Shown here: piece after piece, positions 5,459 to 29,855 of the stretch
Position numbering within the stretch: position 1 is the first letter of the stretch
Layout of the letters: each line of letters opens with the position of its first letter
Program-made: the position numbers and the translations under genes
Source of the DNA: Dubosiella newyorkensis
GTDB taxonomy: Bacteria > Bacillota_I > Bacilli_A > Erysipelotrichales > Erysipelotrichaceae
Reading direction: 5' to 3'
DNA length: 32,000 bases
NCBI RefSeq assembly: GCF_001945605.1
Contig: NZ_MPKA01000067.1
Coordinates: forward strand, 89,519 to 121,518
Notes under the pieces: model-generated
What the model saw: only the letters and a program-made list of their open reading frames with translations
Database searches by the model: none
What the model was told of the DNA's origin: nothing

Positions 5459-5802
5459 ATTTTCTCGATCGCTTGAATCGCCCGCTCATACACGGGCACA
5501 GTTTCCTCAAAAACAAGCACGCCCTGCTCATCCCATTCATGCCGCAAGAGATCCGATAATTGATTGGCTTGCATATACAGATCGTGCATGCCTAAATTCT
5601 GGCATACCCCTTTCAGTGTGTGGGCCGCCAAAAACGCTTGTTCCCGATCTTTGTTTTGGATCGCTTCCTGCAATGAAGCAAAGCTAGGATCGTCGATAAA
5701 TTTCTTTAAAAACTTCACGATCATCTTATCGCTTGGAAGTCGCTTTCGGACCTCCTCGTACGAACCTCCTAATTCCTTAAAACAATCTTTTAATGTATAC
5801 AT
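5455..5802 (-). CDS. Hpt (histidine phosphotransfer) domain protein
   Basis: The 115 aa protein has the phosphorylatable-His motif AAHTLKGVCQNLG. AAGGAG RBS lies 6 nt upstream. Confidence 0.8.
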   Translation of the reverse strand: MYTLKDCFKELGGSYEEVRKRLPSDKMIVKFLKKFIDDPSFASLQEAIQNKDREQAFLAAHTLKGVCQNLGMHDLYMQANQLSDLLRHEWDEQGVLVFEETVPVYERAIQAIEKI

Positions 5803-5803
5803 C

Positions 5804-7843
5804 CTACTCTCCTTTATAGATTTTTAGACAACCGCGGCCGCTCCGCTTCGCTTCATAAAGCATAAAATCCGCCACATTGAACAAATCGTCAAAATTCCGT
5901 TTGATATATTCTGTACTTGCCACACCCATACTGATCGAAATCGGAAACCCTTTATAAGAGCCACTGCTGATCGTATGGAAGATCCGGTCCATGATCGTCT
6001 CCAAATTCCCTGGATATTGAAGCATGATCAAAAACTCATCGCCGCCGATCCGCCCGGCAATATCGAGCTTGCGGATCGAGCCTTGGATCCGTTTGGCTAA
6101 ATAAGCAAGCACCTCGTCTCCAAAGGCGTGTCCATATTCATCGTTGGCGTTTTTGAAAAAATCAAGATCAAGGATCGCAATCGCGTACTCCATCATTTCG
6201 TCCGCTTCCTCGAGCCGTTTTTTCACTTGGATCTGGGTATAATTCTTATTTAAAAGACCAGTCAATTCATCGATCGAAGCGCTTCGCTCCAACATCTCGT
6301 GCGTCATCTTTTGAGAATGGATATCCAAAAGCAAGCCTAAATAGCCACGCACATCTTTTGGATCCTTTTCATGATAGAGCGGATGCAAAATGATCCGCCA
6401 CCAATGCGGCTCTCCGCCATGCTCCGTCGAAAAATTAAAATCGATATCGTCCTCTTTCCCTTTTGAACATTCGATCTCGTGCAGGATCCGATCTATATTT
6501 TCTTTTCCTAGCTTTTCAAGCAAAAGAGGATCGTGCTGCGGATCCAGGATCGAAGAAGGGATCTCGTATTTTTTCGCCATCGAAGACGAGATCGTCAAAA
6601 ACATCGGATCGAGCGAGATCTCAAAACGGATCTCCTGAGTCTTCTCTGAATAAAACGTATACGAGATCTGATCGCGCTTCGAAATCAGATCAAGCGCTTC
6701 TGCCGCAAAATCATCCCGCAACGAAGGCGTCAAGATCGGATCGGTGCATAAATCAAGGAACTCGCGCCGATCGCTGATGACCTCCATCTTTGCCATCTGC
6801 ACGATCTCTTTGAGCTCCTTTTGCACCGTCGGATCTTTGAGCACTTGCAGAAGCAACGGATTGAAGCAGCCACATTCGCCATTCAAGATCATATCGATCG
6901 CTTTTTGCGGAGGGAACGCTTTCTTATAGACACGCTCCATCGTCAGCGCGTCATAAACGTCCGCGATCGCGACCACTTGCGCGCTGATCGGGATCTCGCT
7001 TCCCTTCAGGCCATCCGGATACCCGCTTCCATCAAAGCGTTCATGGTGCCATCTGGCGATCTGCTTTGAAACGATCATAAGCGGTTCGTTGCGATAATTC
7101 GGCACTTTATTCAAAATGTCATATCCGTTTTTGGCGTGCTTCTTGATCTGCTCGAATTCTTCTGGATCGAGGCGAGAGGGTTTGTTTAAGATCTTGGAAG
7201 GCACTGTGATCTTTCCGACATCGTGCAAGGAAGAAGCGAGCGCGATCTGCTCGATCGTCTCATTGTCCAATTTGAGTTGCGGATCGATCTCGGTCAGCTT
7301 TTTTAAAAGGACTTTCGTGATCTGCCGCACATTCAAGACGTGCTGTCCGCTCTCCTCGTTTCTAAATTCGACAATATGCGACAAGATGTTGATGAGCATG
7401 TCGCTTTGCTTGCCTTGCTCCTTAACCTGCTTTTGGACAAGGTATTGGAGCCGTTTTTGTTTGGCGTGCGCCAAGATCGTATTTTCGACACGATGTCGAA
7501 CGATCGAGACATTGAACGGGCGAACGATAAAATCAAAAATCCCATATCCATACGCTTGATCGATAAACTCGCCATCGCTCTCTGCCGTGATCATGATGAT
7601 TGGGATCTGGCTTAGCCAACCTCTTTGTTTCATGATCTTCAAAAACTCAAAACCATTCATGTGCGGCATATAGTAATCCAGCAAGATCAAAGAAATCCCA
7701 TGCGGATCTTTTTCCACGACTTGAAGGCCCTCGAATCCGTTATCCGCTTTGATGATTTCATATTGCTCCTCCAAGATCTCGCTGAGCATCTCCTGATTGA
7801 AGGCCGAATCATCGACGATCAATATTTTTGGCTTTTGATCCAT
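5804..7843 (-). CDS. Response regulator with REC, HD-GYP phosphodiesterase, PAS-like linker and GGDEF diguanylate cyclase domains
   Basis: REC: ILIVDD...LILLDYYMP. HD-GYP: LHDVGK...HHERFDGSGYPDGL. GGDEF: GRIGGDEFLI, with an RxxD I-site (RKLD) exactly 5 residues upstream. Confidence 0.9.
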   Translation of the reverse strand: MDQKPKILIVDDSAFNQEMLSEILEEQYEIIKADNGFEGLQVVEKDPHGISLILLDYYMPHMNGFEFLKIMKQRGWLSQIPIIMITAESDGEFIDQAYGYGIFDFIVRPFNVSIVRHRVENTILAHAKQKRLQYLVQKQVKEQGKQSDMLINILSHIVEFRNEESGQHVLNVRQITKVLLKKLTEIDPQLKLDNETIEQIALASSLHDVGKITVPSKILNKPSRLDPEEFEQIKKHAKNGYDILNKVPNYRNEPLMIVSKQIARWHHERFDGSGYPDGLKGSEIPISAQVVAIADVYDALTMERVYKKAFPPQKAIDMILNGECGCFNPLLLQVLKDPTVQKELKEIVQMAKMEVISDRREFLDLCTDPILTPSLRDDFAAEALDLISKRDQISYTFYSEKTQEIRFEISLDPMFLTISSSMAKKYEIPSSILDPQHDPLLLEKLGKENIDRILHEIECSKGKEDDIDFNFSTEHGGEPHWWRIILHPLYHEKDPKDVRGYLGLLLDIHSQKMTHEMLERSASIDELTGLLNKNYTQIQVKKRLEEADEMMEYAIAILDLDFFKNANDEYGHAFGDEVLAYLAKRIQGSIRKLDIAGRIGGDEFLIMLQYPGNLETIMDRIFHTISSGSYKGFPISISMGVASTEYIKRNFDDLFNVADFMLYEAKRSGRGCLKIYKGE

Positions 7844-7845
7844 AC

Positions 7846-8901
7846 TTATCGGACCTTTCTTTGAAAGGCGATCGGATCTTGGACAAAGCCGAGCGCCTTT
7901 TCCTTTGAGACGATTTTATTTCGCACCAGTTCTGCGATCGAATCGTCCATCGAGATCATTCCTTGTTCTTTGGAAGTATGGATCACGTTGTTGATCTGGA
8001 AGATCTTGCCTTCCCGGATCAAATTCGCGATCGCCGGAGTCACGATCATGATCTCGAAAGCAGGATGCAGCTTGCCATCTTCTCCAGGAATGAGCTGCTG
8101 CGAGACGACCGCTTTGAGCACCATCGAAAGCTGTACCCGGATCTGCGATTGCTGATTGGGCGGAAAGGCGTCGATGATGCGGTCGATCGTCTTGGCCGCC
8201 CCTAACGTATGCAAGCTCGACAAGAGCAGCTGTCCTGTCTCGGCGGCGCTGATCGCCGTTTGGATCGTTTCAAAATCACGCATTTCTCCAAGCAAGATCA
8301 CATTGGGCGTTTGTCGAAGCGCGGCCCTTAGCGCCGCGGCATAATCCTTGGTATCGAGCGAGATCTCTCTTTGCGAGATCAAAGAACGCTTATGCGAATG
8401 GATGAATTCGATCGGATCTTCAAGAGTGATGATATGCCCACCCTTATTTTCGTTGATACGATCGATCAAGCACGCTAAAGTGGTCGACTTTCCGCTTCCC
8501 GCAGGCCCTGTGACCAGCACCATTCCATTTTTTGTGTTGGCCAGCTCTAAGATCGAAGGCAAGATTTCCATATGCTTTGGATCTGGCAAGCCAAAAGGGA
8601 CGACCCGTACGACGCAGGCAAAAGAGCCTCTTTGTTTATAGGCATTGCATCGAAACCGTCCAAGAGAAGGAATGGCGAACGAAAAATCATCATCGCCGCT
8701 TTTTTTCAGCGTTTCTTTGTCGCGATCTGCTATTTTATAAATCTGGTCGATCCACATCGAAGAATCGCTGGGCATGATTTTCTTTTCAAAGAGCGGTTTC
8801 AATTTCCCTTCGGATTTGACTTGGATCGTGGCGCCCGGAATGATAAAAAGATCCGAACTTTTCTGAAGGATCGCTTCCTTCAAGATCTCTGAAATATCCA
8901 T
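7846..8901 (-). CDS. pilT: PilT-family type IV pilus (retraction-type) ATPase
   Basis: Walker A is GPAGSGKST; also HIITLEDPIEF and LLGEMRDFETI. The PilT-specific motif AIANLIREGK is present. I chose the start at ATG 8899-8901 (AGGAG upstream, 2 nt after the preceding stop). The track ORF extends to 8952 without support. Confidence 0.9.
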   Translation of the reverse strand: MDISEILKEAILQKSSDLFIIPGATIQVKSEGKLKPLFEKKIMPSDSSMWIDQIYKIADRDKETLKKSGDDDFSFAIPSLGRFRCNAYKQRGSFACVVRVVPFGLPDPKHMEILPSILELANTKNGMVLVTGPAGSGKSTTLACLIDRINENKGGHIITLEDPIEFIHSHKRSLISQREISLDTKDYAAALRAALRQTPNVILLGEMRDFETIQTAISAAETGQLLLSSLHTLGAAKTIDRIIDAFPPNQQSQIRVQLSMVLKAVVSQQLIPGEDGKLHPAFEIMIVTPAIANLIREGKIFQINNVIHTSKEQGMISMDDSIAELVRNKIVSKEKALGFVQDPIAFQRKVR

Positions 8902-8903
8902 GC

Positions 8904-9269
8904 TTACTTCTCCTTTCCGTCCCATACTGGAATATGGGTGTCTTCGATCCAATCGGCTTTAGATTCGATCGTTTCCTTTTTGATTTGTACGCCTCCTGCC
9001 TCATTCACAAGCAAGACTTGAAGAACGCGGTTATCATCGATCGGGATCGTCACGCTCTCTTGAAAAGGCTCTTCCCCTCTCTCCATCCTCAAGCGTTTGA
9101 TTTCTAGCTCGCTGATCGCTTCATGATACGCTTTAGAGGAGGCGATCGCTTGATCCACACGGGTATCTTGCATCTTGGCCGAATACAGCCCGAGCGTTCC
9201 AAAACAAATGAGCGCGAGCACTAAGGCGATCAGCACAAAAGACGCCGTTCCAATTCCTTTATTTCGCAT
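8904..9269 (-). CDS. Small N-terminally anchored pilin-like protein (ComGG/PilX-like architecture), 121 aa
   Basis: N-terminus is MRNKG-IGTASFVLIALVLALICFG: a basic leader ending in Gly, then a hydrophobic helix, with no Glu at +5. AAGGAG lies 6 nt upstream of the ATG at 9267-9269. It overlaps the upstream gene by 11 nt. Confidence 0.6.
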   Translation of the reverse strand: MRNKGIGTASFVLIALVLALICFGTLGLYSAKMQDTRVDQAIASSKAYHEAISELEIKRLRMERGEEPFQESVTIPIDDNRVLQVLLVNEAGGVQIKKETIESKADWIEDTHIPVWDGKEK

Positions 9270-9636
9270 CGCCATCTCCTTGTCCTTTGACCTTGCTTTC
9301 AAGATGGATCAATTCTTGATCTTGAAAAGACAATCTCAGATCGATCGTATGCAGGCCCTCTTCGTAAGAAGTCTTCTTTTCGAGAACATACTTTCCGTCT
9401 TCATCTTCTTCCATATAGGCGTCCATCCGGACCTGAAAATCTCGCCCTTCTTGTGGGTCGATCCGATACGCTTCGATCAGCTCCCCCATATAGATCTGGC
9501 CATAGCTTTTCGCTTGGGCCCTCTCATGGATCAAAAAGGTCTTGGCGTAGAGCTGGACGATCACCACCGAAGCGAGCGCAAAAAAGAAAAGAATGATGAT
9601 CATTTCCATAAAGCTCGCGTTCCGATTTTTTTTCAC
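9259..9636 (-). CDS. Small pilin-like protein with a degenerate prepilin signal, 125 aa
   Basis: GTG start with AAGGAG 7 nt upstream. N-terminus is KKNRNASFMEMIIILFFFALASVVIV, which resembles the KGFTLIEMLIVL class III signal, but Gly-1 is replaced and the Glu position is shifted. Confidence 0.6.
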   Translation of the reverse strand: MKKNRNASFMEMIIILFFFALASVVIVQLYAKTFLIHERAQAKSYGQIYMGELIEAYRIDPQEGRDFQVRMDAYMEEDEDGKYVLEKKTSYEEGLHTIDLRLSFQDQELIHLESKVKGQGDGDAK

Positions 9637-9640
9637 GATC

Positions 9641-10072
9641 TCACTCCTTTCTTTGATGGACTAAGCGTTGTTCTTTCCCTTCTCGATTTCTTAAAATGAT
9701 CTCGAACCGGCCATTTTCTTCTTCCACGATAAAACCAGGAAGCGATACGATCTTTTCTTGCGGTTTTTTTTCAAATGGCAGCTCGGAAAGAGCGCTCCAT
9801 TCGTAGAGCGTTCCATCGATCTCGTAGATATACGTCGAATATCCATCGTATTGAAGGCAGAGCGCTCCATTTTCGATCTGAATATCCTCGTATCCGTTCC
9901 GCAATTTATTTTGAATATATAAATAGGCGGTCCGCAGGTTGTTGGACGCCTCGTCTTGCGAGGTGATCGTTCCATACACACGTGTACCTAGAAGGACAAG
10001 GATCAGCGAGAACAAGACGAACAAGCCATAAAGCGTAAAGATGAAAAAATCTTGCCAGCTTCTCTTCTTCAT
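9641..10072 (-). CDS. Small N-terminally anchored minor-pseudopilin-like protein (ComGF/GspJ-like architecture), 143 aa
   Basis: ATG at 10070-10072 with GGAGG 9 nt upstream, 2 nt after the preceding TGA. A single TM helix (FFIFTLYGLFVLFSLILVLL) is followed by a beta-rich domain. Confidence 0.6.
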   Translation of the reverse strand: MKKRSWQDFFIFTLYGLFVLFSLILVLLGTRVYGTITSQDEASNNLRTAYLYIQNKLRNGYEDIQIENGALCLQYDGYSTYIYEIDGTLYEWSALSELPFEKKPQEKIVSLPGFIVEEENGRFEIILRNREGKEQRLVHQRKE

Positions 10073-10074
10073 CT

Positions 10075-10368
10075 TCAATTTCCTCCTCGCTCGATCACGA
10101 TGATCCGCGGCCGCAAGTTTTCTGCGAGCACTTCGTAGCGAACGATATATCGCTCTGCATCATAATGGATCGACTCGTCGCTAAGCAGCTCCTGCAAGCT
10201 AGCCGGATAGCGGCCCTCTAAAGCGTATTGGTTGACGATCGCTTCCTCCAAGCTTTCTTGAAGCAGCTTGGTCGATTCGCTGCTAGTCTTTGCGCTGATC
10301 AAGCCGATCGCGAAAATAGCGATCGCGATGATCGAGAAAAGCGCGAGCCCTAAACGAAATTTACGCAT
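10075..10368 (-). CDS. Small pilin-like protein, candidate major subunit, 97 aa
   Basis: N-terminus is MRKFRLG-LALFSIIAIAIFAIGLISA. It is followed by EAIVNQYALEGRYPASLQELL, which is very similar to the conserved GspG/type IV pilin segment (helix, then x-Y-x-x-x-G-x-YP-x-x-L-x-x-L). GGAG RBS is present. Confidence 0.65.
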   Translation of the reverse strand: MRKFRLGLALFSIIAIAIFAIGLISAKTSSESTKLLQESLEEAIVNQYALEGRYPASLQELLSDESIHYDAERYIVRYEVLAENLRPRIIVIERGGN

Positions 10369-10377
10369 ACCTCGCTC

Positions 10378-11424
10378 CTAGCCCATCGAAAGCATGAGCG
10401 AGATCAGCGGCAGCATCGTCGAAAGAAGGATGCCGCCAACGATCAGTGTCAGCAGCGCCACGATTGTTGGCTCGACGATCGATACGATATGCTCGATCCC
10501 TTCATCGACTCGCTTTTCATACAAATCGGAAAGCTCCATAAAGACTTGGTCGACTTGGCCTGTTTCGTTGCCGACTTCGATCATTTTTTCTTGAAGGGGA
10601 GCGAAAAGATGGGAGGCTTCGATCGCTTGATCGAAATCATTGGTTTTCAAAAATGTCTCATAGCACGTTTTCGCTTGTTTTTGAGAGCTTGCTGTCGGCA
10701 TAAAGCGCGGCAGAAGCTCGATCGTCTCCTCTAAGGAGTATCCGCTTCTTAGCGCCATCGACACGACTTGTGAAAAACGCTGAGCGGCTTGGGCTTCAAA
10801 GATATGGTGCAATGGCGGAATAAAGCGCGCCGCCTTGAGCAAGATCTCTTTACCTTGATGGCGTTTATATAAAATATAAAGGAGGATGGCCGCGATTCCG
10901 ATCAATGCTGTCAAGACAAGGATGGCGTAGCCGATCCCGATCCCGATATTCAAGATCGGCGTTTCTTCTTGGGAAATCCCTAGGTTTTCATAGACGCGGA
11001 TAAAGACTGGGATCACCTGGATGACCATCACGCCAATGACGATCGCCATCATGAATAAAAGAATGAGCGGATAGGTCAAAGCGGAGCGAAGCGTTTCTTT
11101 CAAGCGGGCTTCTTTTTTATAGTATTCGGAAAGAAGATGAAGGACGCTTTCTAAATTGCCTGTCAGTTCGGCGATCTTGATCATTTGCAGAAAATAAGCG
11201 GGGAAAGCGTTTGTTTCTTTGAACGCTTCATACATCGTTTTTCCTTGCTTGATGTAGGTGTTGATCGTTTCTAACAGGGCCCCGTATTCGCTTTGACGAT
11301 ACGAGGAAGCGAGAATATCGATCCCATCGTAAAAGAGGATCCCCGATCGTAAGATCATCGAGCATTGGGAACATAAAATAGCGAGTTGTTCGGCGCTCAT
11401 CGTGTATTTTGATTTTGTTGGCAT
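10378..11424 (-). CDS. Type II secretion system F family (PilC/GspF/ComGB-like) inner-membrane platform protein
   Basis: Two T2SSF repeats (e.g. LTYPLILLFMMAIVIGVMVIQVIPVF and EPTIVALLTLIVGGILLSTMLPL). ATG at 11422-11424 with AGGAGG 8 nt upstream. The track's TTG at 11430 is too close to the RBS. Confidence 0.9.
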   Translation of the reverse strand: MPTKSKYTMSAEQLAILCSQCSMILRSGILFYDGIDILASSYRQSEYGALLETINTYIKQGKTMYEAFKETNAFPAYFLQMIKIAELTGNLESVLHLLSEYYKKEARLKETLRSALTYPLILLFMMAIVIGVMVIQVIPVFIRVYENLGISQEETPILNIGIGIGYAILVLTALIGIAAILLYILYKRHQGKEILLKAARFIPPLHHIFEAQAAQRFSQVVSMALRSGYSLEETIELLPRFMPTASSQKQAKTCYETFLKTNDFDQAIEASHLFAPLQEKMIEVGNETGQVDQVFMELSDLYEKRVDEGIEHIVSIVEPTIVALLTLIVGGILLSTMLPLISLMLSMG

Positions 11425-11426
11425 GC

Positions 11427-12287
11427 TCAATACCTCCTGTCTTCTATATAGTCTTCGGTTTTGTTTTTATTGTTTTTGCCATAGGTCGGATCGTACCATG
11501 TCCATTCGCCATCGATCTCGACTTGGTTCCAGGCATGATAGATCCCTTCGCTGGATAGATCCCCCATCACAAGGCGGGTCGGGATATTTTGGGCGCGCAG
11601 CATCGCGGCCATAAGGGCGGCATAGTCGAAGCAGATCCCTTTTTTTTCTTGAAGCACTTGTTCAAGATTGGGGATATAGCCCGCCTGGACATTGGCGGCC
11701 TTTTCGTTGTCGTAATCCATGTATTGGATGAGGTAGTTATAGATGGCGTCGATCTTTTCTTGATCGCCCTCGAGTCCATCGCACAGATCGTACGACAATA
11801 AAATGGCGGGATATTCGTGGGTATACCACACGAATTGATTGGGAAAGACAAAAACGCGGTCCTCCTGTTTTTGTTGAACAGATAGATCTTCCGAATAGAT
11901 CTGGGCGTATTTGTTGTCTTGTATATTTTGATAAAACGTGATCGAATATTCACCATTTCCCATCTGCAGTGGGAAAACGCTGTATTCCATATTGGAAGGG
12001 AGAGTATAGGTGTATTGGTCGGTGCCAAGCTGGATGCGGCATTTCAGCTTCGCATCAAAAGGCTGGAGCGTCCGGACCATGACATAGCCATCGCTCGTGT
12101 TGGAGGCGTCGATCTCGATCTGGCCATTCGATAAGACGACTTCGTTCGAAGAAGAAGGCTCGTTGATCGTGATCTCGCCTTTGTAGATCGAACCCGGCTC
12201 GATTTCTTGAAATTTTGTAGACTGAGAGGAGCAAGCGCTAAAAAAAAGACAAAAAAGCGCGAGGATCCATCGATATACACGCCACAT
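11427..12287 (-). CDS. Transglutaminase-like cysteine protease-fold lipoprotein
   Basis: Lipobox is LFFSAC after a signal peptide. A Cys-His-Asp triad is present in KKGICFDYAALMAAMLRAQNIPTRLV, YHAWNQV and WYDPT. Confidence 0.85.
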   Translation of the reverse strand: MWRVYRWILALFCLFFSACSSQSTKFQEIEPGSIYKGEITINEPSSSNEVVLSNGQIEIDASNTSDGYVMVRTLQPFDAKLKCRIQLGTDQYTYTLPSNMEYSVFPLQMGNGEYSITFYQNIQDNKYAQIYSEDLSVQQKQEDRVFVFPNQFVWYTHEYPAILLSYDLCDGLEGDQEKIDAIYNYLIQYMDYDNEKAANVQAGYIPNLEQVLQEKKGICFDYAALMAAMLRAQNIPTRLVMGDLSSEGIYHAWNQVEIDGEWTWYDPTYGKNNKNKTEDYIEDRRY

Positions 12288-17142: not shown

Positions 17143-17251
17143 TTCAAGTCCTCCTTTATCCATATTTTCTGTATTCTCGTTATGATTATACAGATTTTCG
17201 CTTAGTTTGTCTCTTTCTTATTATACTTGTTTTTCACTTTTTTGACGCATG

Positions 17252-17287
17252 AAAAGCGTGGTCCAAATTGGAGCCACGCTTTTTTTA
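17252..17287 (-). terminator. Intrinsic terminator immediately after the giant surface-protein gene
   Basis: Stem AAAAGCGTGG/CCACGCTTTT with an inner TCCA/TGGA pairing, A/T runs on both sides, and a start 2 nt after the TAA stop. Confidence 0.75.
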
Positions 17288-17288
17288 A

Positions 17289-20200
17289 TTAAAGGATATC
17301 CTTTCTCTTTTTCCAAAGGAGTCCAATGCCCAACAAGCTCAAAATAAGCAGGCTTGTCCATGCAAGATGGTTGGTTTGAGCGGCCGTGTTGGCGCTTGTC
17401 GGTTTGGTTGGCGTGCCGTTTTTCGAAGAGGCCGGCGTACCAGGCTCTACGGAAACGGTGACTTCATTGGTAGGAACGCGCTGATCTTGATAGAGCAGGA
17501 CGCCCGTGTTGATCCAGGCGCTGTTTTGAGTCACGACTGGGATCTTCACTTTAAAGGATACATCGACGCTTTCGTCAGGAGCGAGGTGATCGATCTTCCA
17601 TCTCACGATACCGTTTTCGATCGTTCCATCATGATCGATCGAGTTAGGAACAAAGCGAAGTCCTTGCGGAATCGCGTCTTTGACTTGCAGATCACGCACT
17701 TCTTCTTTTCCTCGATTCTGGATGCGGAGGATGTAGGTGATCGTATCGTCGATATGCGCTTTGATCCGGATCTTGGATGGTGTTCCATCGTTGTGGGCTT
17801 GCAGCTTTTCGATCGTGATATTTGGTTCTTCTTTTGGCGTTTCGATCTCGACTTCATTGGATGGAGTCGGCTCGTCTGGACGGGTCGATTCGCTCGCCTG
17901 CGCGATATTTTTCCAAAGTCCATCTTGAGCTGGGACTTCGATCGCGAAAGAGACGGTTCTTTCTGTTCCTGTCTTCATCGTGCCTAAATGCCATGTGATC
18001 GTGCCGTTTTCCACCACGCCATCGTCGGATACGCTGCCTTCGACAAGGATCAATCCGCTCGGTATCGTATCAGAGACGACCACATCGTTGGCATCGGCCT
18101 GTCCTGCGCTTGTGACTTTGATAAAGTAGGTGACGATATCTTTTTCATCGACGCTCAGCTTGTCTTTCGTTCGATTGCCTTCATTGCGTTTTTGCGATTT
18201 TTCGATCTTAAGGCTTGGAGCGAACGTTTCGACTTCGACTGGTGGCGTCTTCTTTGGTTCTGGTTCTTCGTCATCGTAAGCGGAGGCGACATTGATCCAT
18301 CGCGTATATTCTTTGACGGCTGGCACTTTGACTTGGAACGACACCGTTTTCTTTTCCTTAACGTTCAGGTTGGCGATCTTCCATGTGATCATACCCTCTT
18401 TTTCTTGGCCTTGATCGCTGATCGAGTCTTGAACAAGGCTCAAACCGTCTGGAACGATATCTTCGATGACGACATTGTGGACGGCCAGGTTTCCTTTGTT
18501 TTCGACGTCGATTTCATACGTGATCGTGTCCCCGGCTTTGGCTTGAAGCCTGCTTTGGGTGAAGGAGCCTCCATTTTTCGCTTGGCGTTTGAGGATTTCT
18601 AGATTTGGCGTATTGATCTCGATTTCGACTGGCGGCGTTTTGAATGGTTCTGGTTCGTCAGGATGACTGAGGCTTGCGATATTTTCCCAGCGAGTCGCCT
18701 CTTTGATGTCTGGAACTTTGACTTTGAACCACACTTCTTTTTCTTCGTTTGGTTCCAATGTACCGATGTTCCAAATGATCTCTCCTGTTTCAGAGCGTTC
18801 ATATGGATACGTTGGATCGATTTCCACAAGCTGCAGATCGCCATTTTCATGGGTCGGGATCGAGTCTTTGATCTGCACGTCATGGGCTGGCAGCGCGCTT
18901 TTATTGGTCGCTTTCAAATAGTAGGTGACAATATCTTGCGCTTTTCCATGAAGCAATTCTTTGTGCCGGTCTCCCTCGTTGAGTTTATGTTCTTTTTCAA
19001 GAACGACTTTTGGCGCGTCGGTCTCGACTTCGACTTTATTGGATGGGATATCGACTGGATCGCCTGTCTCTGGATTGTTTGGATTGTTGTCGTAATGCGT
19101 TTGGGCGCCATTCTCCCATAGTGTGTATTCCATCACGCTTGGAAGCTTCACCGTGAAGGTCACGGTTTTGGATTGTCCGATCTTGAGATCGCCGATTTTC
19201 CATGTGATCGTTTGCGTTTGCTTGTCGTACGATCCGTTGTCGCTTGCTTCTTGATAGTTCAAGAAGAGCGTGTGGGTTTTCTTATCGCTTGGTAGCGTGT
19301 CTTCAATGACGACATTTTTGGCGATCGCTTTGCCGGTGTTCGTAACCGTTAAACGATAGGTGAGCGTTTCGCCTATTTTCCCTGTGCGTCTTTGGGTCGT
19401 GAAGTCTGGATCGCTTTCGAGCTTTTGGTCTTTGAAGATCGTTAGTGCTGGCACATCGGTGGCGACTTCGACTTCATTGGAGTCTTTTGGCTCTTCCTCT
19501 TCATAGACGAGAGTGGCGATATTTTTCCAAGTCGTTTTTTGATCGACTTTTGGCACTTCGACGCTGAACGAGACTTGTTTGGTTTCTTCTGCTTCGATCG
19601 CGCCTAGATTCCAAAGGATCTGTTTTGTTTCTGGATCATAGATGCCTTGGTCGCTGATCGTATCTTGTTTCAATTCCAGTCCATTTGGCACGACATCTTT
19701 TACAAACACGTTTTCGATGGTATGCAGGCTTGGATTGTGGATCTTGAGCGTGTAGGTGACTAGATCGCCAGATTCAACAGCTTGGAATTGTTTTGTCATT
19801 TCTTGGTTGTTGATGGCTTGGAATTTTTCGATGTTCAATTCTTTGACGATCGTTTCGATATGGACCGTATTCGATTGTTTTGGCTCTTCGCCTTCGGCTT
19901 GCACGCTTCCTGTATTTGGCCAACGGGTGTCTTGTTCGACGATCGGCACTTGGATCTGGAACGATACGATTTTCGTTCCGCCTTTGGCTGGTAGTGTTCC
20001 AACATTCCAGCGCAGCGTGCGCGTCGCTTCGTCATACTTTCCTTCGTTGAAGGCTTTGACAAAGAGAAGGCCCTCTTCGATCGTATCGTTCACGATCACG
20101 TTTTTGGCTTCTTCTTCTCCTGTGTTGGTCACGACAAGATCGTAGGTGACTAGATCGCCAGGTCGTACTTGGAGCGGGTCGATACCATCATAGCGGATGT

Positions 20201-26200: not shown

Positions 26201-28316
26201 GATCGGCATTTTCTTCCGTTTTCGCGTTTTGGGCGGCACGGGTTACTTTTTCTTGAGAATTTTTTCCTTGTTCATTTTTATGTCCTGAAACCTTATAGGC
26301 ATATACAGTTTCATCTTCGCCATTGACATCTTTGCGTTGTTCCACAAATGTTTTGTTTTCGCCGTCAATAAAATCCCATAAGTTGACAAAGGTTCCCATG
26401 GATGTGTGAACGCCACCTAAATCCGCGATTTTCGTGGATTTCGCGATCTTCGTATAATTCCCCTTTTCGTCTTTTTCCATCTTGTTCAAGAAGACAAACA
26501 TGTCGTCGTCTCCATAGAAGAAATAACGTAGTGGTGCGCAGTATCCCTCTTGAAGCACGAATGGAATGGTCGTCGTCATTCCAAAATAAGCGTTGTGGTC
26601 GTGGCCGCAATCGCTTGTTGGGAGTTTTTGATTATTTGGATCGGTTTGAGCAGGATCCACCGCTAAACGATAATTTGTCTTACTTCCCTCTCCAAATTTG
26701 ATATCGTGTCCAACCGTTCCCCAGGAAGAAGCGAGATCCATCGGCCAAAATTTGTTAGAGCGAATTCCTGCCGTCACGATTGGAAGTTGGGTCAATCCAT
26801 CCAGTCGTTTCGTAGCGTCTTGATTTGAAACCACAGACTGTAAAGTATAGGTACCGCCCGTACGCTGAAAATCTAATTTGAAGCTTTCTGCAGAATTGGC
26901 TTTATAGACGGTCCGTCCTGTCGGATCAACATGAGGATCGGTTGAAAATAAAGCGGGCGCGTTGACGCCTTCCGCCCACTGTAGCGTGCCATCCGCATTC
27001 ATTCCGGTCGCAAGTCCAAAAGTCGCGCCTTGTAAATTGGATCCATTCCAGGAAACAGATGTATTCCATTTGGATTGGCCAAACCGGTTGTTTGTTTCAT
27101 TGGATTTATTCAATGAATTTCCATTCCATAATTGTTGGTCCAAACCTGTATGGGCATTCGCGTTCCCAAACGCAAAGAATCCAACTGCCTCATCCTTCTC
27201 AGCATTCAGACTGTTCGTATTGATTCCTAGAGATCTTGTATTGACCCATACTTGTTGGTTGTTAGCAACTTTTTGGTCGGCTACTTCTCTTGAAATTTCA
27301 TTCTTTTGTTTAGCCGCTTCATCTTTTGAAGCGTAAACCTTTCCATCTGTAATGTCATAGTCGAAAAAATCAACATCTTTCACTTCCTGATTGCCTGTTG
27401 TGGGTTCGAATACTAGACGGATCACCATATCATTCGTGACGAGTACGGTCGCTTGTGTTAGATTACTTTTATCCCCTTGTACGTTATACCGTACACCATG
27501 TTCATCTGGTTGAATATTTTCGATATTCGCGTTTTTTTCATTGTTCGTAAACACAAATTTCGAAGGATCATGACGCAATGGATCTGTTTTCAATCTTGGA
27601 GCTTTGATGATTGTGAAGTCATCCCGACTGATGCTGTCCTTATTTGTTTGGTTAGAACGTAGCCATACTTCGGATAGTGTATAGTTTTGATTATAGCTAT
27701 TTTCGCTTGTCCCGTTGTAAAGCTTGTTCATATATCGCATTTGCGGTTTCAAAAGAAATGGAACGGTTTCATCGGCGAACATTTTGTATAGCACCGATTG
27801 GGTCTTTACTGTTCCATCTGTAGGATTAGAAAACTTGATTCTCGACTTTGGATCCAGGCTTCGCTTCGTTCCATAAGAAAAATTAGGATCTACATTGGTT
27901 GGAAGCTGTCCTTTTCGCAAGTTTGTATTCCAAACTACCAATGGTTTTTGATCTTCGTAACTTTTACCACCCGATAAATATTGTTGAAGATCGGATGCAT
28001 TTTCGGGTTTATTATAAGCATCTGTTCCTTGCTTAGATCCCAATGATTCTTCTGTACTGTAGTTGATTTTCCCGTTATTGTATTCATCCTCTACGTTCCC
28101 TAGAACCATCGCTGGGAAATTATAGTAGTGCTGGATCGTGATGTTTGGGTTGATCGTAGTGTCTTCTGGCAAATTGTATGTCGAAGACTCTTTTGTCTCT
28201 TCGGCTTGGATCGGGATTCCTGACAATAGCTGAGAGCCAACCATCCCAACGCATAAGCTCATGCTTAAGAGCTTTTTCCATAGTTTTTGGGTACACAAAA
28301 AGTTCATCTTTTTCAT
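17289..28316 (-). CDS. Giant multidomain surface protein/adhesin (approx 3675 aa). Order: signal peptide, unknown N-terminal region, fibro-slime/PA14-like domain, Cna-B/SpaA-type domains, about 10 Spy0128-type pilin isopeptide domains, 8 DUF11 repeats, C-terminal TM anchor.
   Basis: One uninterrupted ORF. The signal peptide is MKKMNFL...LLSGIPIQA-EE. Domain motifs are listed in the repeat and other features below. I prefer the ATG at 28314-28316 because the track's TTG at 28343 lies inside the leader terminator U tract. Confidence 0.9.
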   Translation of the reverse strand: MKKMNFLCTQKLWKKLLSMSLCVGMVGSQLLSGIPIQAEETKESSTYNLPEDTTINPNITIQHYYNFPAMVLGNVEDEYNNGKINYSTEESLGSKQGTDAYNKPENASDLQQYLSGGKSYEDQKPLVVWNTNLRKGQLPTNVDPNFSYGTKRSLDPKSRIKFSNPTDGTVKTQSVLYKMFADETVPFLLKPQMRYMNKLYNGTSENSYNQNYTLSEVWLRSNQTNKDSISRDDFTIIKAPRLKTDPLRHDPSKFVFTNNEKNANIENIQPDEHGVRYNVQGDKSNLTQATVLVTNDMVIRLVFEPTTGNQEVKDVDFFDYDITDGKVYASKDEAAKQKNEISREVADQKVANNQQVWVNTRSLGINTNSLNAEKDEAVGFFAFGNANAHTGLDQQLWNGNSLNKSNETNNRFGQSKWNTSVSWNGSNLQGATFGLATGMNADGTLQWAEGVNAPALFSTDPHVDPTGRTVYKANSAESFKLDFQRTGGTYTLQSVVSNQDATKRLDGLTQLPIVTAGIRSNKFWPMDLASSWGTVGHDIKFGEGSKTNYRLAVDPAQTDPNNQKLPTSDCGHDHNAYFGMTTTIPFVLQEGYCAPLRYFFYGDDDMFVFLNKMEKDEKGNYTKIAKSTKIADLGGVHTSMGTFVNLWDFIDGENKTFVEQRKDVNGEDETVYAYKVSGHKNEQGKNSQEKVTRAAQNAKTEENADHYQLAVYYLERGASGSSCYMRFSVPFQELDMEETAMNGQIMVEKEVKRSEAAGSVAPTDDRYEFQLNLEDPNGGSLNNKYAIEFYNVTKKADGTTEDTLINDSSLPKYIANGETFKLKDAQKALITGLPRLGPGETGTKNGGYKYDIQEIKKIDHSGNKTDLTSTNDISTTFLSGTIDEGLKQGEYQEGKQFANLIKGENYVKFINAEDPGILVLTKALATNSATTDEAFRFHVTLTPPEGRKLTKVPYILKRGTKSENPSAEPRKQETGEKEIGKDGTYTFDLKKDDELTLYNIPADTKYEVNEETLITEAGDLHFDVESINGNTALKSASGTIVANTTDNKKVTVDFVNTAKQIALVQIPVTKKMTGREFNGKETYRFKIAGQAGAPMPEKDTITLQNVSESGTATPIATSTLTGQFAPIEFDSTHINKDNTYTITEEAGNEENVEYSKAKYTVIVHVSQDAESGKLVATSTMTDESGKEAAIEFTNDYIQPINMALPIQKNLVGREIQAGDEFFFKIEDKEGNPKPVKELVARDIISIQSKTGTDQANFEFKELDRTDVGNYVFTISEAAGSIEQLLYDTHKAEVHMDISLMESDSGKQLKAEVYTMDGENKQPFSNNDPVLFTNTFQSIGQIEIPVSKTLQNTTFDGKTEYEFVLKGEGNAPMPANPVLTILGKEGTGTATNTFVIPLTEADVPKNESKDFVYTIQEKVGTDPNMRYETKLYTVKVHAQVKTNETTKKDEIVTEMVDTNPIEIINTKVDPITASIPIQKTLNGRTAQAEDLFTFHIRGDENSQSKIKSPSKLTIDLTKDTKGAFNIGEFTLKDVGKSYDFTIQEEKGDLERVDYDTSERKVRASVNLNADGKLQVDLHEVQMENGEEKLVPISSSQPLMITNTYHAIGKIEIPVKKKLVNKEFGTDIYRFEIQGEEGQPLPENKILEMAQETGKFEIPLDDTQVPVNTKRTYTYKIMEQAGNDPDMLYDTNIYTVNVQAENTNGTITSTIQEGTPPVVFTNTAVLPATTIIPIEKTIEGREVLASDNFTFRIRGNAQSRRFLPDKDEITISAQVVDGKLALSKARFEIGPFTKVDTGQSYTFLIDEIAGTEQGMNYDPQIHTITLTPKLEGSTITFDVKENETVVNEDAPVAFTNTYQPKGTLRIPVTKKLEGRTFTQGDRFLFEITGEKDAPMPTNPILSILPTSGNEVEATFAPITYTKIGDYTYTIKELSTGLSGMNYDPATYTVQVKVSQGNGTLVVEPTYSNPTTNVETISFTNTYKPEESYAIPVTKNMIGRPMEATDQFVFTLEAITPEAPMPEHEQVSVQGNGAHIVNTTFDPIIFDQSHAGKTFEYVVKEHRGSIEHIKYSSEEYVISIQVTYENGNLEATPTIYKQNKAEDNIVDSIQFTNTYQPSGTWRPTLFKQLLGASLQEDAYQFKMHVEKVDDPTIAFDRQAKNNADGTINFALIEFEQPGLYSVTIQEVEGKDETIQYALDPIEYMLEVKDENGTLRVEEKNREQDHVFTNDAGLRISKQLIPGTGQTLDETDINFEFPFELDLGTVLANQTLETKRLTSNTIEEETIQLDANGKVEFSLKHEETLIVYGLGQQATYTIEERTKDRWIDKYLHIDTIGSAKGTISNGIDAQVTFRNLKPSTDNAKIHGFKTMDPASDFFEMKGQEFQFKISAIGTETESQRSLENTEQTIQNEPSEQEEFEEEPLDESFHIYRSSLPIEETGNGSTPNEAQKKLKLPTRLKEIETMPAQDTPLPERTTTTNNAFGRFEFDAITYTKPGRYVYEIQEINNQISGMSYETTHYKAIVNVTQRSGTLHVDSIQYTDMNDQPLANDTIVFTNTYKNIDQKPQLSIEKEQSINFKNFTRDQETVETNDIVTYKLTIKNTGDAIAKNVIVSDHVPDGLILLEQSLVDATLDEEGNITWNIGDLAAQTSRTLTFQVQVPKVDQSNTWTNIAYVRSDEIDPEPSNKVTVETEPAKPNVSIHKYESVGQDIRYDGIDPLQVRPGDLVTYDLVVTNTGEEEAKNVIVNDTIEEGLLFVKAFNEGKYDEATRTLRWNVGTLPAKGGTKIVSFQIQVPIVEQDTRWPNTGSVQAEGEEPKQSNTVHIETIVKELNIEKFQAINNQEMTKQFQAVESGDLVTYTLKIHNPSLHTIENVFVKDVVPNGLELKQDTISDQGIYDPETKQILWNLGAIEAEETKQVSFSVEVPKVDQKTTWKNIATLVYEEEEPKDSNEVEVATDVPALTIFKDQKLESDPDFTTQRRTGKIGETLTYRLTVTNTGKAIAKNVVIEDTLPSDKKTHTLFLNYQEASDNGSYDKQTQTITWKIGDLKIGQSKTVTFTVKLPSVMEYTLWENGAQTHYDNNPNNPETGDPVDIPSNKVEVETDAPKVVLEKEHKLNEGDRHKELLHGKAQDIVTYYLKATNKSALPAHDVQIKDSIPTHENGDLQLVEIDPTYPYERSETGEIIWNIGTLEPNEEKEVWFKVKVPDIKEATRWENIASLSHPDEPEPFKTPPVEIEINTPNLEILKRQAKNGGSFTQSRLQAKAGDTITYEIDVENKGNLAVHNVVIEDIVPDGLSLVQDSISDQGQEKEGMITWKIANLNVKEKKTVSFQVKVPAVKEYTRWINVASAYDDEEPEPKKTPPVEVETFAPSLKIEKSQKRNEGNRTKDKLSVDEKDIVTYFIKVTSAGQADANDVVVSDTIPSGLILVEGSVSDDGVVENGTITWHLGTMKTGTERTVSFAIEVPAQDGLWKNIAQASESTRPDEPTPSNEVEIETPKEEPNITIEKLQAHNDGTPSKIRIKAHIDDTITYILRIQNRGKEEVRDLQVKDAIPQGLRFVPNSIDHDGTIENGIVRWKIDHLAPDESVDVSFKVKIPVVTQNSAWINTGVLLYQDQRVPTNEVTVSVEPGTPASSKNGTPTKPTSANTAAQTNHLAWTSLLILSLLGIGLLWKKRKDIL
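17445..20630 (-). repeat. Eight tandem DUF11 (conserved repeat domain) units, approx 130 aa / 400 nt each, inside the adhesin gene
   Basis: The recurring pattern is (D/E)x(I/L)TYxLx(V/I)xNxGxxxAxNVx(V/I)xDxxPxGL ... (I/L)xWx(I/L)GxLxxxxxxxVxFxVxVP ... PSNxVE(V/I)ET. It was counted 8 times in the translation. Confidence 0.8.
20640..25145 (-). repeat. About ten Spy0128/FctA-type pilin isopeptide-linkage domain repeats (approx 130 aa each), interrupted by one Cna-B-like domain (approx 21255-21635) and an acidic linker (approx 20990-21130)
   Basis: Each unit has IP(V/I)xK near the N-terminus, (Y/F)x(I/V)xE mid-domain, and FTNT(Y/F) or a close variant at the C-terminus. Confidence 0.75.
26120..26650 (-). 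other. Fibro-slime/PA14-like carbohydrate-binding-type domain within the adhesin
   Basis: HNAYFGMTTTIPF...RYFFYGDDDMFVFLNK...IADLGGVHTS...YQLAVYYLERGASGSSCYMRFSV matches the remembered fibro-slime pattern F-x-F-x-GDDD-x-WVFIN...DLGG-x-H...ER. Confidence 0.6.
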
Positions 28317-28515
28317 TTTTCTTTTCCCTTTCTCTTCACGCAAAAAAACGCCTTTTTCGTATGAAAAGAGGCGCTTGTAAGCTATGTTATTGTTTAGTTA
28401 TTTTTTCTTCCCATACTTTCTATTGAAACCATCTTGATAGGATGTTCCTTTTTAGGGGAAGCTTGGAGCGATCCTATCTTGGTCGTTTCCTTATTGCTCA
28501 ATCGTTTATTTTCGT
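28317..28515 (-). promoter_or_regulatory. Approx 200 nt structured 5' leader of the adhesin gene (candidate attenuator or riboswitch, class unassigned)
   Basis: It lies between the candidate promoter and the ATG. It contains a perfect 8 bp inverted repeat GATAGGAT...ATCCTATC closing a 27 nt loop, and it ends in a strong terminator hairpin. No ORF is present. Confidence 0.5.
28342..28374 (-). terminator. Intrinsic terminator located inside the adhesin leader, approx 25 nt upstream of the start codon
   Basis: The minus strand reads CGCCTCTTTTC-ATAC-GAAAAAGGCG followed by TTTTTTT (10 bp stem with one bulge). There is no upstream minus-strand gene for it to terminate, because the neighbour is divergent. 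Confidence 0.7.
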
Positions 28516-28521
28516 ATAATA

Positions 28522-28551
28522 ATGATACTATTTTTAGTGATCGAATGTCAA
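28522..28551 (-). promoter_or_regulatory. Candidate promoter of the adhesin gene
   Basis: The minus strand reads TTGACA (28546-28551), an 18 nt spacer, then TATCAT (28522-28527), in an AT-rich divergent intergenic region. Confidence 0.45.
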
Positions 28552-28667: not shown

Positions 28668-29855
28668 ATGCAGTCTTCTATGAATGCTCGTTATCAGGCG
28701 ATCAACTTCTCATTCTTCTTAATGATGGGTTCGATGATCGCGTTCGCGTCCAATTATTTATTGACGCTTGGTTATTCGAATGCGCAAATAGGAATGATCT
28801 TAGCGCTCTATTCGATCGTTTCCTTTTTTATGCAGCCTTTCTTCGCGTCCTTTGCGGATACGCATCCTTCCATTTCTTTGCAGAAGTTGATCAATGGTTT
28901 GTTGTGTATGATCATGGTCGCTTCTTTGATTTTGTTCGCTTCTTCAAAAACTTTCGGGCGAGGTCTTTTATTGTCGATGTTGGTCATTTTGATCTTTGCC
29001 TGCATGATGTCGGTCATTCCTTTAGTGAACGCGGCGGCTTTCATGTATGAAAAATTTGGGATCAAGATCAATTATGGACTGGCTAGAGGTCTTGGTTCGG
29101 CGGCGTATGCCATCATCAGCATGATCCTTGGTTATGTCCTGGACGCTTTTTCTCCAACGATTTTGCCTTTGATCTATTTTATTTTGGCTTTATTGACTTT
29201 TTTAGCCGTATCGAGCTATCACTATAAATATTCTGGCCAAGAAAAGCGAGAAGAACAACATTTTGAACAACAAGAAAAGAGTAAACAAATTTCTCTTTTA
29301 TCGTTTTTGAAAAAATACAAGAGCTTAACGATTCTTTTGTTTGGTTATATGCTTGTGTATATTACGCATATGATCATCAATAGTTTTTATATTCAGATCA
29401 TCGAGCATGTTCATGGTACGAGTTCGAATCTTGGGATCGCGGTCTTTATTGCCGCCATTGTCGAATTGCCTGCGATGTTTGGTTTTGAGAGGCTTGCTAA
29501 AAAGATCAATATCAAGGCGTTGCTTTTGATTTCTTTGTTGTTTTATATCGCGAAGCATGTGGTCACTTTCTTGTCTTTCAATATTTGGGGGATCTATTTG
29601 GCGGCTTTTCTTCAGATTGGCGCGTATGCTCTTTTTACTCCGGCTATCGTTTACTATATCAATCAGATCGTGAGCGCATACGATAGTTTGATGGGTCAAA
29701 CGGCCAATACGATGTTCGCGACGGCTGGTGGAATTTTTGGTTCTTTGATTGGTGGAATCGTTATCGATTATTTTGGAATTTCGATCGTTCTTGCCTTAGG
29801 CGTCGTTTTATCGATCCTTGGAACCTTGATTTGTTGGGTCGGTTTAAAAAAATAA
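28668..29855 (+). CDS. MFS transporter (12 predicted TM segments)
   Basis: Hydrophobic helices are spread throughout, with a charged central loop (YKYSGQEKREEQHFEQQEKSKQ). I chose the start at ATG 28668 because AGGGAGG lies 8 nt upstream. The track's ATG at 28641 lies inside the -10 box. Confidence 0.8.
   Translation: MQSSMNARYQAINFSFFLMMGSMIAFASNYLLTLGYSNAQIGMILALYSIVSFFMQPFFASFADTHPSISLQKLINGLLCMIMVASLILFASSKTFGRGLLLSMLVILIFACMMSVIPLVNAAAFMYEKFGIKINYGLARGLGSAAYAIISMILGYVLDAFSPTILPLIYFILALLTFLAVSSYHYKYSGQEKREEQHFEQQEKSKQISLLSFLKKYKSLTILLFGYMLVYITHMIINSFYIQIIEHVHGTSSNLGIAVFIAAIVELPAMFGFERLAKKINIKALLLISLLFYIAKHVVTFLSFNIWGIYLAAFLQIGAYALFTPAIVYYINQIVSAYDSLMGQTANTMFATAGGIFGSLIGGIVIDYFGISIVLALGVVLSILGTLICWVGLKK

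Follow-up and report, generated by a model that had tools for sequence, protein, structure and literature searches.

What lies between the promoter and the start codon of a giant surface-adhesin gene in Dubosiella newyorkensis, and which described leaders does it resemble? Riboswitches for cyclic di-GMP (c-di-GMP) offer one point of comparison: c-di-GMP-II riboswitches control pilin and adhesin genes in Clostridioides difficile, and riboswitches in general usually conserve their aptamer and let the expression platform drift. Classical transcription attenuators, which include the LicT/SacY leaders with their ribonucleic antiterminator (RAT) and the ANTAR leaders, offer a second (review, PMC12591593). 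A third is cATT, the attenuator of pLS20-family conjugation operons, in which a long pre-formed stem-loop, with one of the pairing strands on either side, zips up, and antitermination is the default; the most conserved segment of that leader competes for the terminator arm, and its authors read this segment as a possible protein-binding site (PMC13401043). The locus that we compare with these systems lies in a 32,000-nucleotide (nt) stretch of D. newyorkensis DNA (contig NZ_MPKA01000067.1, positions 89,519 to 121,518; hereafter the window), where a leader of ~199 nt precedes a gene for an adhesin of 3675 amino acids (aa). An earlier reading of the same stretch, the original prediction, had taken this leader for a candidate riboswitch or attenuator ending in an intrinsic terminator. 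All coordinates of leader elements and of the adhesin are given on the minus strand of the window.

Judged from its sequence, the element is a terminator/antiterminator attenuator—a well-known kind of device—and a member of none of the described families tested. We regard this attenuator as probably real and, as far as the collections show, as restricted to the genus Dubosiella. The reading that we prefer, at a probability of roughly one-half, is that it acts in cis to gate transcription of the giant adhesin gene and takes its input via a trans-acting factor. We infer that the effector is more likely such a factor, recognizing an invariant 16-nt box in the leader, than a small molecule held by an aptamer.

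Conservation of the leader

Is the leader conserved in relatives, and in which of its parts? With the N-terminal 640 aa of the adhesin as the query, 12 homologs were found among 5.8 billion clustered proteins. The closest of them (P0001, 61% identity) gave a second clade, because the 240 nt upstream of its gene on Logan contigs contain a recognizable homolog of the leader. Other homologs were rejected as sources of leaders: one lies in an integrase/XRE context without a comparable leader (P0002), two belong to high-G+C organisms with unrelated upstream regions (P0008 and P0011), one is a fragment (P0003), and three lie on contigs that break in an (AGAC)n array, leaving the leaders incomplete (P0004, P0006, and P0007). 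DNA collections were scanned with exact patterns, built from two blocks common to the leaders of the window and of the second clade. The single match listed for the genome collection was in Dubosiella muris NM09_H32, 5′ of an adhesin ortholog of 68% identity. A looser scan of metagenomes returned 26 loci among the matches listed; L014, L016, L017, L021, and L025 are true relatives, and the remainder are chance matches or palindromic hairpins, the latter because the search pattern is partly self-complementary. The resulting set comprises seven distinct leaders, which fall into three clades: D. newyorkensis (clade A; the window and L025), an uncultured relative (clade B; L001, L014, L017, and L021), and D. 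muris (clade C; L009/L016).

All seven leaders adjoin the 5′ end of an adhesin ortholog (61–68% identity in the N-terminal protein sequence), at a distance of 25–45 nt from the adhesin start and regardless of what flanks them. The upstream neighbor, divergent in the window as the original prediction had it, is a divergent MFS transporter gene in clade A, a co-directional Bax1-I gene with its own terminator in clade B, and unrelated open reading frames (ORFs) in clade C. Since the flanking genes differ between clades, promoter, leader, and gene behave as one unit.

In the 241-column alignment of these leaders, no invariant runs are longer than AGAAAGTATGGGAAGA (16 nt, 28421–28406), which is the box, and CGCCTCTTTTCATAC (15 nt, 28373–28359), which is the terminator 5′ arm with the loop; after them in length come the U-tract and a small part of the terminator 3′ arm. 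The linker that joins box and terminator has 4 invariant columns out of 34 and, at 26–32% pairwise identity between clades, is essentially random. Conservation of the 5′ region is also low (16 of 118 columns invariant, 29–47% pairwise identity between clades); that of D. muris is unalignable and has a different hairpin layout, and 10 nt of this region are lacking in L014 and L017. The box occurs once per locus, with no second copy in the window or in any fetched locus, and, across the scanned collections of genomes and metagenomes, its exact combination with the terminator is found only 5′ of this gene and only in one genus. Promoter, terminator, and the strand complementary to the terminator are thus conserved in three clades while other leader sequence is near-random, which supports the premature-termination control that had been proposed from the window alone.

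At the finest scale, six loci with the window's MFS protein (L039–L042, L045, and the window itself) have an identical leader, and two others with the same protein (L043 and L044) carry a 2-nt deletion that removes two A residues between the Shine-Dalgarno region and the ATG (corresponding to 28317–28321). This A-run deletion and the variation of the U-tract from U6 to U8 across lineages are homopolymer polymorphisms at sites that set the efficiency of translation initiation and of termination, respectively.

The promoter is a match to the consensus at 11 of 12 positions, the best in the 11.7 kb scanned, and it is the TTGACA-18-TATCAT promoter originally described; in the alignment, the −10 hexamer of clade B reads TATTAT, with a TGn extension, and that of clade C reads TATGAT. 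Transcription would start near 28515, which agrees with the ~200 nt first claimed for the leader. The further claim that the leader is free of ORFs is nearly right: no leader ORF is conserved, but there is a 35-codon ORF with a TTG start at 28394–28501, which is frame-shifted or stopped in the orthologous leaders. The minimum free energy (MFE) of the whole leader is −39.1 kcal/mol (z = −2.2).

The full terminator (28374–28342) consists of GCGCCUCUUUUC-AUAC-GAAAAAGGCG and the U7 tract, whose end lies 25 nt 5′ of the ATG at 28316. Its hairpin, with an 11-bp stem, a one-base bulge, and a 4-nt loop, has a computed energy of −12 to −13.4 kcal/mol (z = −2.3); it lies where the original prediction placed it, and the bulge is the only reason why a simple terminator scanner missed it. 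The hallmark of an intrinsic terminator, a G+C-containing hairpin followed by a U-tract, is there, and the hairpin is kept in 7/7 leaders. Across them the 3′ arm reads GAAAAAGGCG, CAAAAAGGCG, GGGAAAGGGCG, AGGAAAGGGCG, or CGAAAAGGGCG, so that the terminator is preserved (hairpins of −8.4 to −14.1 kcal/mol) through one-sided changes in that arm. Nothing promoter-like fits between the terminator and the ATG. With no room for a promoter 3′ of the terminator, every adhesin transcript must read through it.

Competing helices and a proposed mechanism

What could compete with the terminator? Part of the box, GUAUGGGAAGA, is complementary to UCUUUUCAUAC of the terminator over 11 contiguous bp, two of them G·U, and this pairing takes most of the terminator 5′ arm and the entire loop. 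When the upstream leader of each of the three clades was shuffled 1000 times, a contiguous helix of 11 bp arose in 5, 10, and 21 of the shuffles (0.5–2%). The helix is present in the MFE structure of the isolated box-to-loop segment of every leader, in that of the whole nascent transcript in three of the six leaders tested (window, L001, and L014), and in the RNAalifold consensus. An invariant terminator loop beside a varying 3′ arm is the pattern expected if the 5′ strand has a double pairing duty.

The two alternative structures are of similar computed stability: the antiterminator segment has −9.3 to −14.2 kcal/mol, and the terminator has −8.4 to −14.1 kcal/mol. As soon as the 3′ arm can pair, the balance favors the terminator state by 2.6–6 kcal/mol (13 in L021), and at equilibrium the mean pair probability is 0.71–0.98 for the terminator and ≤0.08 for the antiterminator. 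The linker folds with only −1.5 to −4.6 kcal/mol and is essentially unstructured. Similar stabilities together with dominance of the terminator at equilibrium suggest a balanced switch, the predicted default state of which is off.

Upstream of the box, the perfect 8-bp inverted repeat pointed out in the original prediction is indeed present, and in RNA it would form a hairpin, P1 (Table 1). A perfect inverted repeat of ≥8 bp arises in 23 of 1000 dinucleotide shuffles. Clades A and B both retain P1, which shows a single compensatory change between them (U-A to C-G) and has a C·A mismatch in L025; clade C lacks it. A role of the repeat as a DNA operator or invertible switch was rejected because the spacing of its arms differs between clades (27 vs. 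20–22 nt); its shortness also rules out an invertible switch. Within the P1 loop lies segment 1, CUUCCC, a candidate anti-antiterminator strand whose pairing with the box is present in the MFE structure of the nascent leader. Its counterparts, the pyrimidine stretches UUCCAUACU in clade B and UUUCGUCUUUU in clade C, are non-homologous but predicted to be functionally equivalent, and the stretch sits in the P1 loop in both clades A and B. CsrA might bind the ACAGGAUG-like motifs present in clades A and B, a possibility that was considered; clade C lacks these motifs.

These elements can be assembled into a mechanism with the layout of a classical 1:2 / 2:3 / 3:4 attenuator. A conserved promoter of the sigma-70 type would begin the leader, and the nascent box AGAAAGUAUGGGAAGA would first be captured by the upstream pyrimidine stretch. 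The terminator would then form and RNA polymerase would release a transcript of ~170 nt, which is the default off state. Pairing of the box with the 5′ arm and loop would instead create an antiterminator that excludes the terminator, and only then would full-length mRNA be made. An RNA-binding protein most likely, or possibly a small RNA (sRNA), would bind the box or the antiterminator helix and tip the balance toward read-through, either by stabilizing the antiterminator or by blocking the competing upstream pairing. Among the RNA elements only the antiterminator strands are invariant, and the upstream region has been free to diverge, to the point of replacement in D. muris, which argues for a trans-acting macromolecule as the input: an invariant platform beside a drifting sensor region points to a leader that depends on a trans-acting factor and not to a riboswitch.

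Why would such a switch matter? D. newyorkensis is a mouse-gut commensal with immunomodulatory properties, and the 11-kb gene encodes by far its largest predicted surface adhesin. If termination is conditional, attachment to host or mucus would be a regulated and possibly bistable state, and the leader would add an unclassified attenuator family to the poorly studied Erysipelotrichaceae. The 16-nt box offers a precise target for identifying the regulator and a means of fixing the adhesin in the on or off state.

Table 1. Positions of the leader elements, the adhesin gene, and two other genes within the window.
Feature	Position	Strand	Remark
−35 hexamer TTGACA	28551-28546	minus	Invariant in all three clades
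−10 hexamer TATCAT	28527-28522	minus	18-nt spacer from −35
5′ leader RNA (predicted)	28317..28515	minus	~199 nt up to ATG at 28316
Perfect 8-bp inverted repeat	GATAGGAT 28478-28471, ATCCTATC 28443-28436	minus	
P1 hairpin, GAUAGGAU / AUCCUAUC	28436..28478	minus	RNA form of the inverted repeat; 27-nt loop
Segment 1, CUUCCC	28456..28461	minus	Candidate anti-antiterminator strand inside P1 loop; pairs with GGGAAG of the box
Invariant 16-nt box AGAAAGUAUGGGAAGA	28406..28421	minus	16/16 columns invariant in 7 leaders; 3′ 11 nt (28416-28406) are the 5′ strand of the predicted antiterminator
Variable A-rich linker	28374..28405	minus	Box-to-terminator length conserved (~33-34 nt), sequence not
Terminator 5′ arm and loop, CGCCUCUUUUCAUAC	28359..28373	minus	15/15 columns invariant
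Terminator 3′ arm GAAAAAGGCG	28358-28349	minus	Varies between clades, hairpin retained
U7 tract	28348-28342	minus	
Shine-Dalgarno region	28333-28321	minus	Purine-rich
Adhesin ATG	28316-28314	minus	Independent gene callers start a 3670-3675-aa product here
Surface adhesin gene, 3675 aa	17289..28316	minus	Monocistronic, own 3′ terminator
Divergent MFS transporter gene	28668..29855	plus	Context only
Response regulator, HD-GYP and GGDEF domains	5804-7843		

Alternative explanations

How well does the proposed mechanism hold up? Several points weigh against it. Neither the window nor the neighborhood of the gene in any clade encodes a candidate RNA-binding regulator, and the evidence comes from three clades of one genus. 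The antiterminator strands are invariant in 7/7 leaders, so that covariation lends the helix no support, and the structure of lowest energy for the whole nascent transcript is without it in L025, L021, and L009. Since purines abound in the leader and pyrimidines in the terminator arm, the energy of the antiterminator duplex alone is unremarkable, and 68–205 of 1000 shuffles match it. The AGAAA at the 5′ end of the box is invariant and is left unaccounted for by the helix. The anti-antiterminator pairing is short, different in each clade, and easily reached by chance, and its statistical support is weak. What the sequences show is the features themselves, how conserved and complementary they are, and the energies predicted for them; the site where transcription starts, termination at the hairpin, the switch, and the kind of effector are inferred from these.

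Would the leader need a factor at all? Because antiterminator and terminator are similarly stable, kinetic partitioning between them is plausible without one; a leaky terminator, with an antiterminator that fixes the level of read-through or ties it to polymerase speed, NTP pools, or temperature, could serve to keep a costly 11-kb gene low or heterogeneous in expression. In its favor, the locus has no linked regulator gene, its U-tract varies from U6 to U8 between lineages, and the zipper-type attenuator of pLS20 functions in purified transcription without added factor (PMC13401043). A factor-free leader requires only that the hairpins be stable, however, and this leaves unexplained why the 3′ arm and the linker drift while 16 + 15 nt, the loop and the unpaired AGAAA among them, are strictly invariant. 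We consider this explanation unlikely, although it stands ahead of the other alternatives. An sRNA gene of its own, ~170 nt long, with the adhesin expressed only by incidental read-through, is the least probable of all: the promoter-to-terminator unit is complete and its terminator is predicted to dominate at equilibrium, but the unit is always joined to the adhesin start, 25–45 nt upstream of it whatever the flanking genes, the adhesin has no other promoter, and most of the would-be sRNA body is unconserved.

The box, which resembles a Shine-Dalgarno sequence, could also attract ribosomes, and a ribosome or 30S subunit sitting on it would block the antiterminator and favor termination. All seven leaders contain a mini-ORF in the box (AUG GGA AGA) with a stop 0–3 codons further on in each clade (MGR, MGRR, or MGRKNN before the stop); the sequence AGAAAG matches the complement of the extreme 3′ end of Bacillota 16S rRNA, and the terminator 5′ arm looks like an anti-Shine-Dalgarno sequence. 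The only Shine-Dalgarno-like sequence lies 1 nt from the AUG, though, far off the usual spacing, the longer leader ORFs are unconserved (a 1-nt indel in L025, stops in the other clades), and the mini-ORF may be a by-product of the conservation of the box. Attenuation by ribosomes is in our judgment very improbable.

Could the leader be a riboswitch after all? An unclassified small-molecule or second-messenger riboswitch, such as a c-di-GMP ON switch, would have its aptamer between the transcription start and the box (P1 with its loop and perhaps a pseudoknot with the box) and its platform in the box plus terminator. The layout is canonical and the predicted default is off; P1 is shared by clades A and B with its compensatory pair, and the pairing of segment 1 with the box would make a pseudoknot with the P1 loop. 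The precedent from C. difficile also speaks for this possibility, as does the c-di-GMP enzyme noted in the original prediction, a response regulator with GGDEF and HD-GYP domains that is encoded within the window; as a link to c-di-GMP, a gene 20 kb away is only circumstantial. Rfam 15 was searched with gathering thresholds across the whole window and with E-values up to 10 for the leader and the clade B and C loci. No family reached threshold in any clade, and the scattered sub-threshold noise (Vimentin3, S774, icaR 3′UTR, drum, and others) included nothing that recurred across clades. Covariance models of c-di-GMP-I (GEMM-I, RF01051) gave no match to E = 10 in the window leader or the clade B and C loci, nor did those of c-di-GMP-II (RF01786) to E = 10 or of the T-box (RF00230) in any clade.

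Conservation argues in the same direction. The putative aptamer is the least conserved part of the leader: it is 29–47% identical between clades and unalignable in D. muris, its P1 is mismatched in L025, and 10 nt of it are lost in L014 and L017. An invariant platform with a drifting sensor region is the reverse of what riboswitches show, which argues against a small-molecule aptamer, and the exact box-plus-terminator pattern is confined to one gene of one genus in the collections scanned. No conserved structured aptamer was found 5′ of the platform among the three clades compared, which is not a strong negative. The suggestion of a c-di-GMP riboswitch is therefore not supported, and we consider a riboswitch of any unclassified kind improbable. 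A bolder proposal would make the leader the founding member of a genus-restricted sensory RNA—either a riboswitch or the recruiter of a novel antiterminator protein—in which the box is the recognition element and the adhesin is switched on by a host or second-messenger signal; this is doubtful as well, ranking above the plain riboswitch and below the factor-free leader.

Genomic context and comparison with described systems

The adhesin has a signal peptide, 10 FctA/Spy0128-like isopeptide domains, 8 DUF11 repeats, and a C-terminal membrane anchor; its N-terminal ~640 aa (26397–28316, minus strand) have no Pfam domain and are presumably the binding tip. At the C terminus (17289–17400, minus strand), a hydrophobic segment and a KKRKD tail resemble those of a sortase substrate, with no obvious LPXTG before them (...AAQTNHLAWTSLLILSLLGIGLLWKKRKDIL); no sortase gene is present in the window. 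The 3′ terminator of the gene (17245–17285, minus strand) is a hairpin with A7 on one side and U4 on the other, which could act bidirectionally between the adhesin and uvrA. In one clade B locus (L021:4437–14006) the adhesin is split into a 2404-aa ORF and a separate 765-aa ORF of DUF11 repeats. On the other side of the leader, the MFS gene has a mechanical ORF from 28641, but its likely true start is the ATG at 28668, which follows a GAGGGAGG Shine-Dalgarno sequence and a TGTATAAT extended −10; public gene calls of this protein have the 395-aa form. The UvrA and HprK proteins of the window fall into exact and 90%-identity clusters that are named for D. newyorkensis.

Kinase, Hpt, response-regulator, and T2SS/type-IV-pilus-like genes lie 16–25 kb from the leader. 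They belong to a cluster (2996–12287, minus strand) that encodes a hybrid histidine kinase with two receiver domains, an Hpt protein, the HD-GYP/GGDEF response regulator, a T2SSE ATPase, a T2SSF platform protein, a transglutaminase-like protein, and several small ORFs without Pfam hits, one of them matching DUF4860. The cluster looks like a c-di-GMP-linked pilus or secretion module.

Is termination upstream of such adhesins peculiar to Dubosiella? Adhesin homologs of ~36% identity (L004, L005, and L036) have non-homologous leaders, yet in these too a terminator-like hairpin followed by U7-10 immediately precedes the ribosome-binding site, and control by termination may recur across this family of adhesins. 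A second terminator-like hairpin lies ~60 nt upstream in these loci (L004:1–112, L005:1–125, and L036:1–125), with the form CAGAC-AGGGAAA-GUCUG plus U7 and a 5′ arm that is the (AGAC)n array; all three independent assemblies break inside this array. The leader terminators are thus in tandem, and the array could mediate slipped-strand phase variation.

Other described kinds of leader were compared directly with the Dubosiella element. Against a BglG/LicT-type RAT leader, the best match has 12–13 mismatches at 25 specified positions. An ANTAR leader would have paired hexaloop hairpins, which are missing; the only hexaloop hairpin is one in which the terminator 3′ arm pairs with the U-tract. A leader-peptide attenuator of the trp-type or antibiotic-sensing kind was rejected because the leader ORFs differ or shift frame between and within clades and the mini-ORF has no properly spaced Shine-Dalgarno sequence. 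The unstructured and unconserved linker rules out a zipper-type attenuator. Processive antitermination was dismissed as the rationale of the element, since there are no strong sense-strand terminators inside the 11-kb ORF and no NusG-paralog or ConAn-like gene nearby.

How, then, does the element relate to its closest described counterparts? With the c-di-GMP-I and -II riboswitches 5′ of Clostridia pilin and adhesin genes, it shares a long leader with a terminator before a Bacillota surface-adhesion gene, in a genome that encodes c-di-GMP enzymes; it differs in that its leader has no covariance-model match and its upstream domain is unconserved. The likeness to cATT is closer in several respects. 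Both are attenuators before a very long transcription unit, in both an upstream segment can pair with the 5′ stem and the loop of the terminator, and in both the competitor for the terminator arm is the best-conserved part of the leader. Unlike cATT, the Dubosiella leader has an unstructured linker and a terminator as its predicted default, and there is neither sequence similarity between the two nor any linked gene for processive antitermination in Dubosiella.

From the classical attenuators, including those of LicT/SacY and ANTAR (PMC12591593), the element differs in that its antiterminator is a long-range helix around a variable loop of ~33 nt and not a compact hairpin. Nor is there an evident translated leader peptide or a CAT/PRD or ANTAR gene in the window, where no HutP-like or NusG-like gene was seen either. 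In its basic design the likeness is extensive: the gene is immediately preceded by an intrinsic terminator, the alternative antiterminator uses the terminator 5′ arm and so excludes the terminator, and an upstream segment may sequester the antiterminator strand. The terminator is in both cases thermodynamically favored, so that a positive input is needed, and, as in the RAT elements, the conserved sequence is the antiterminator itself.

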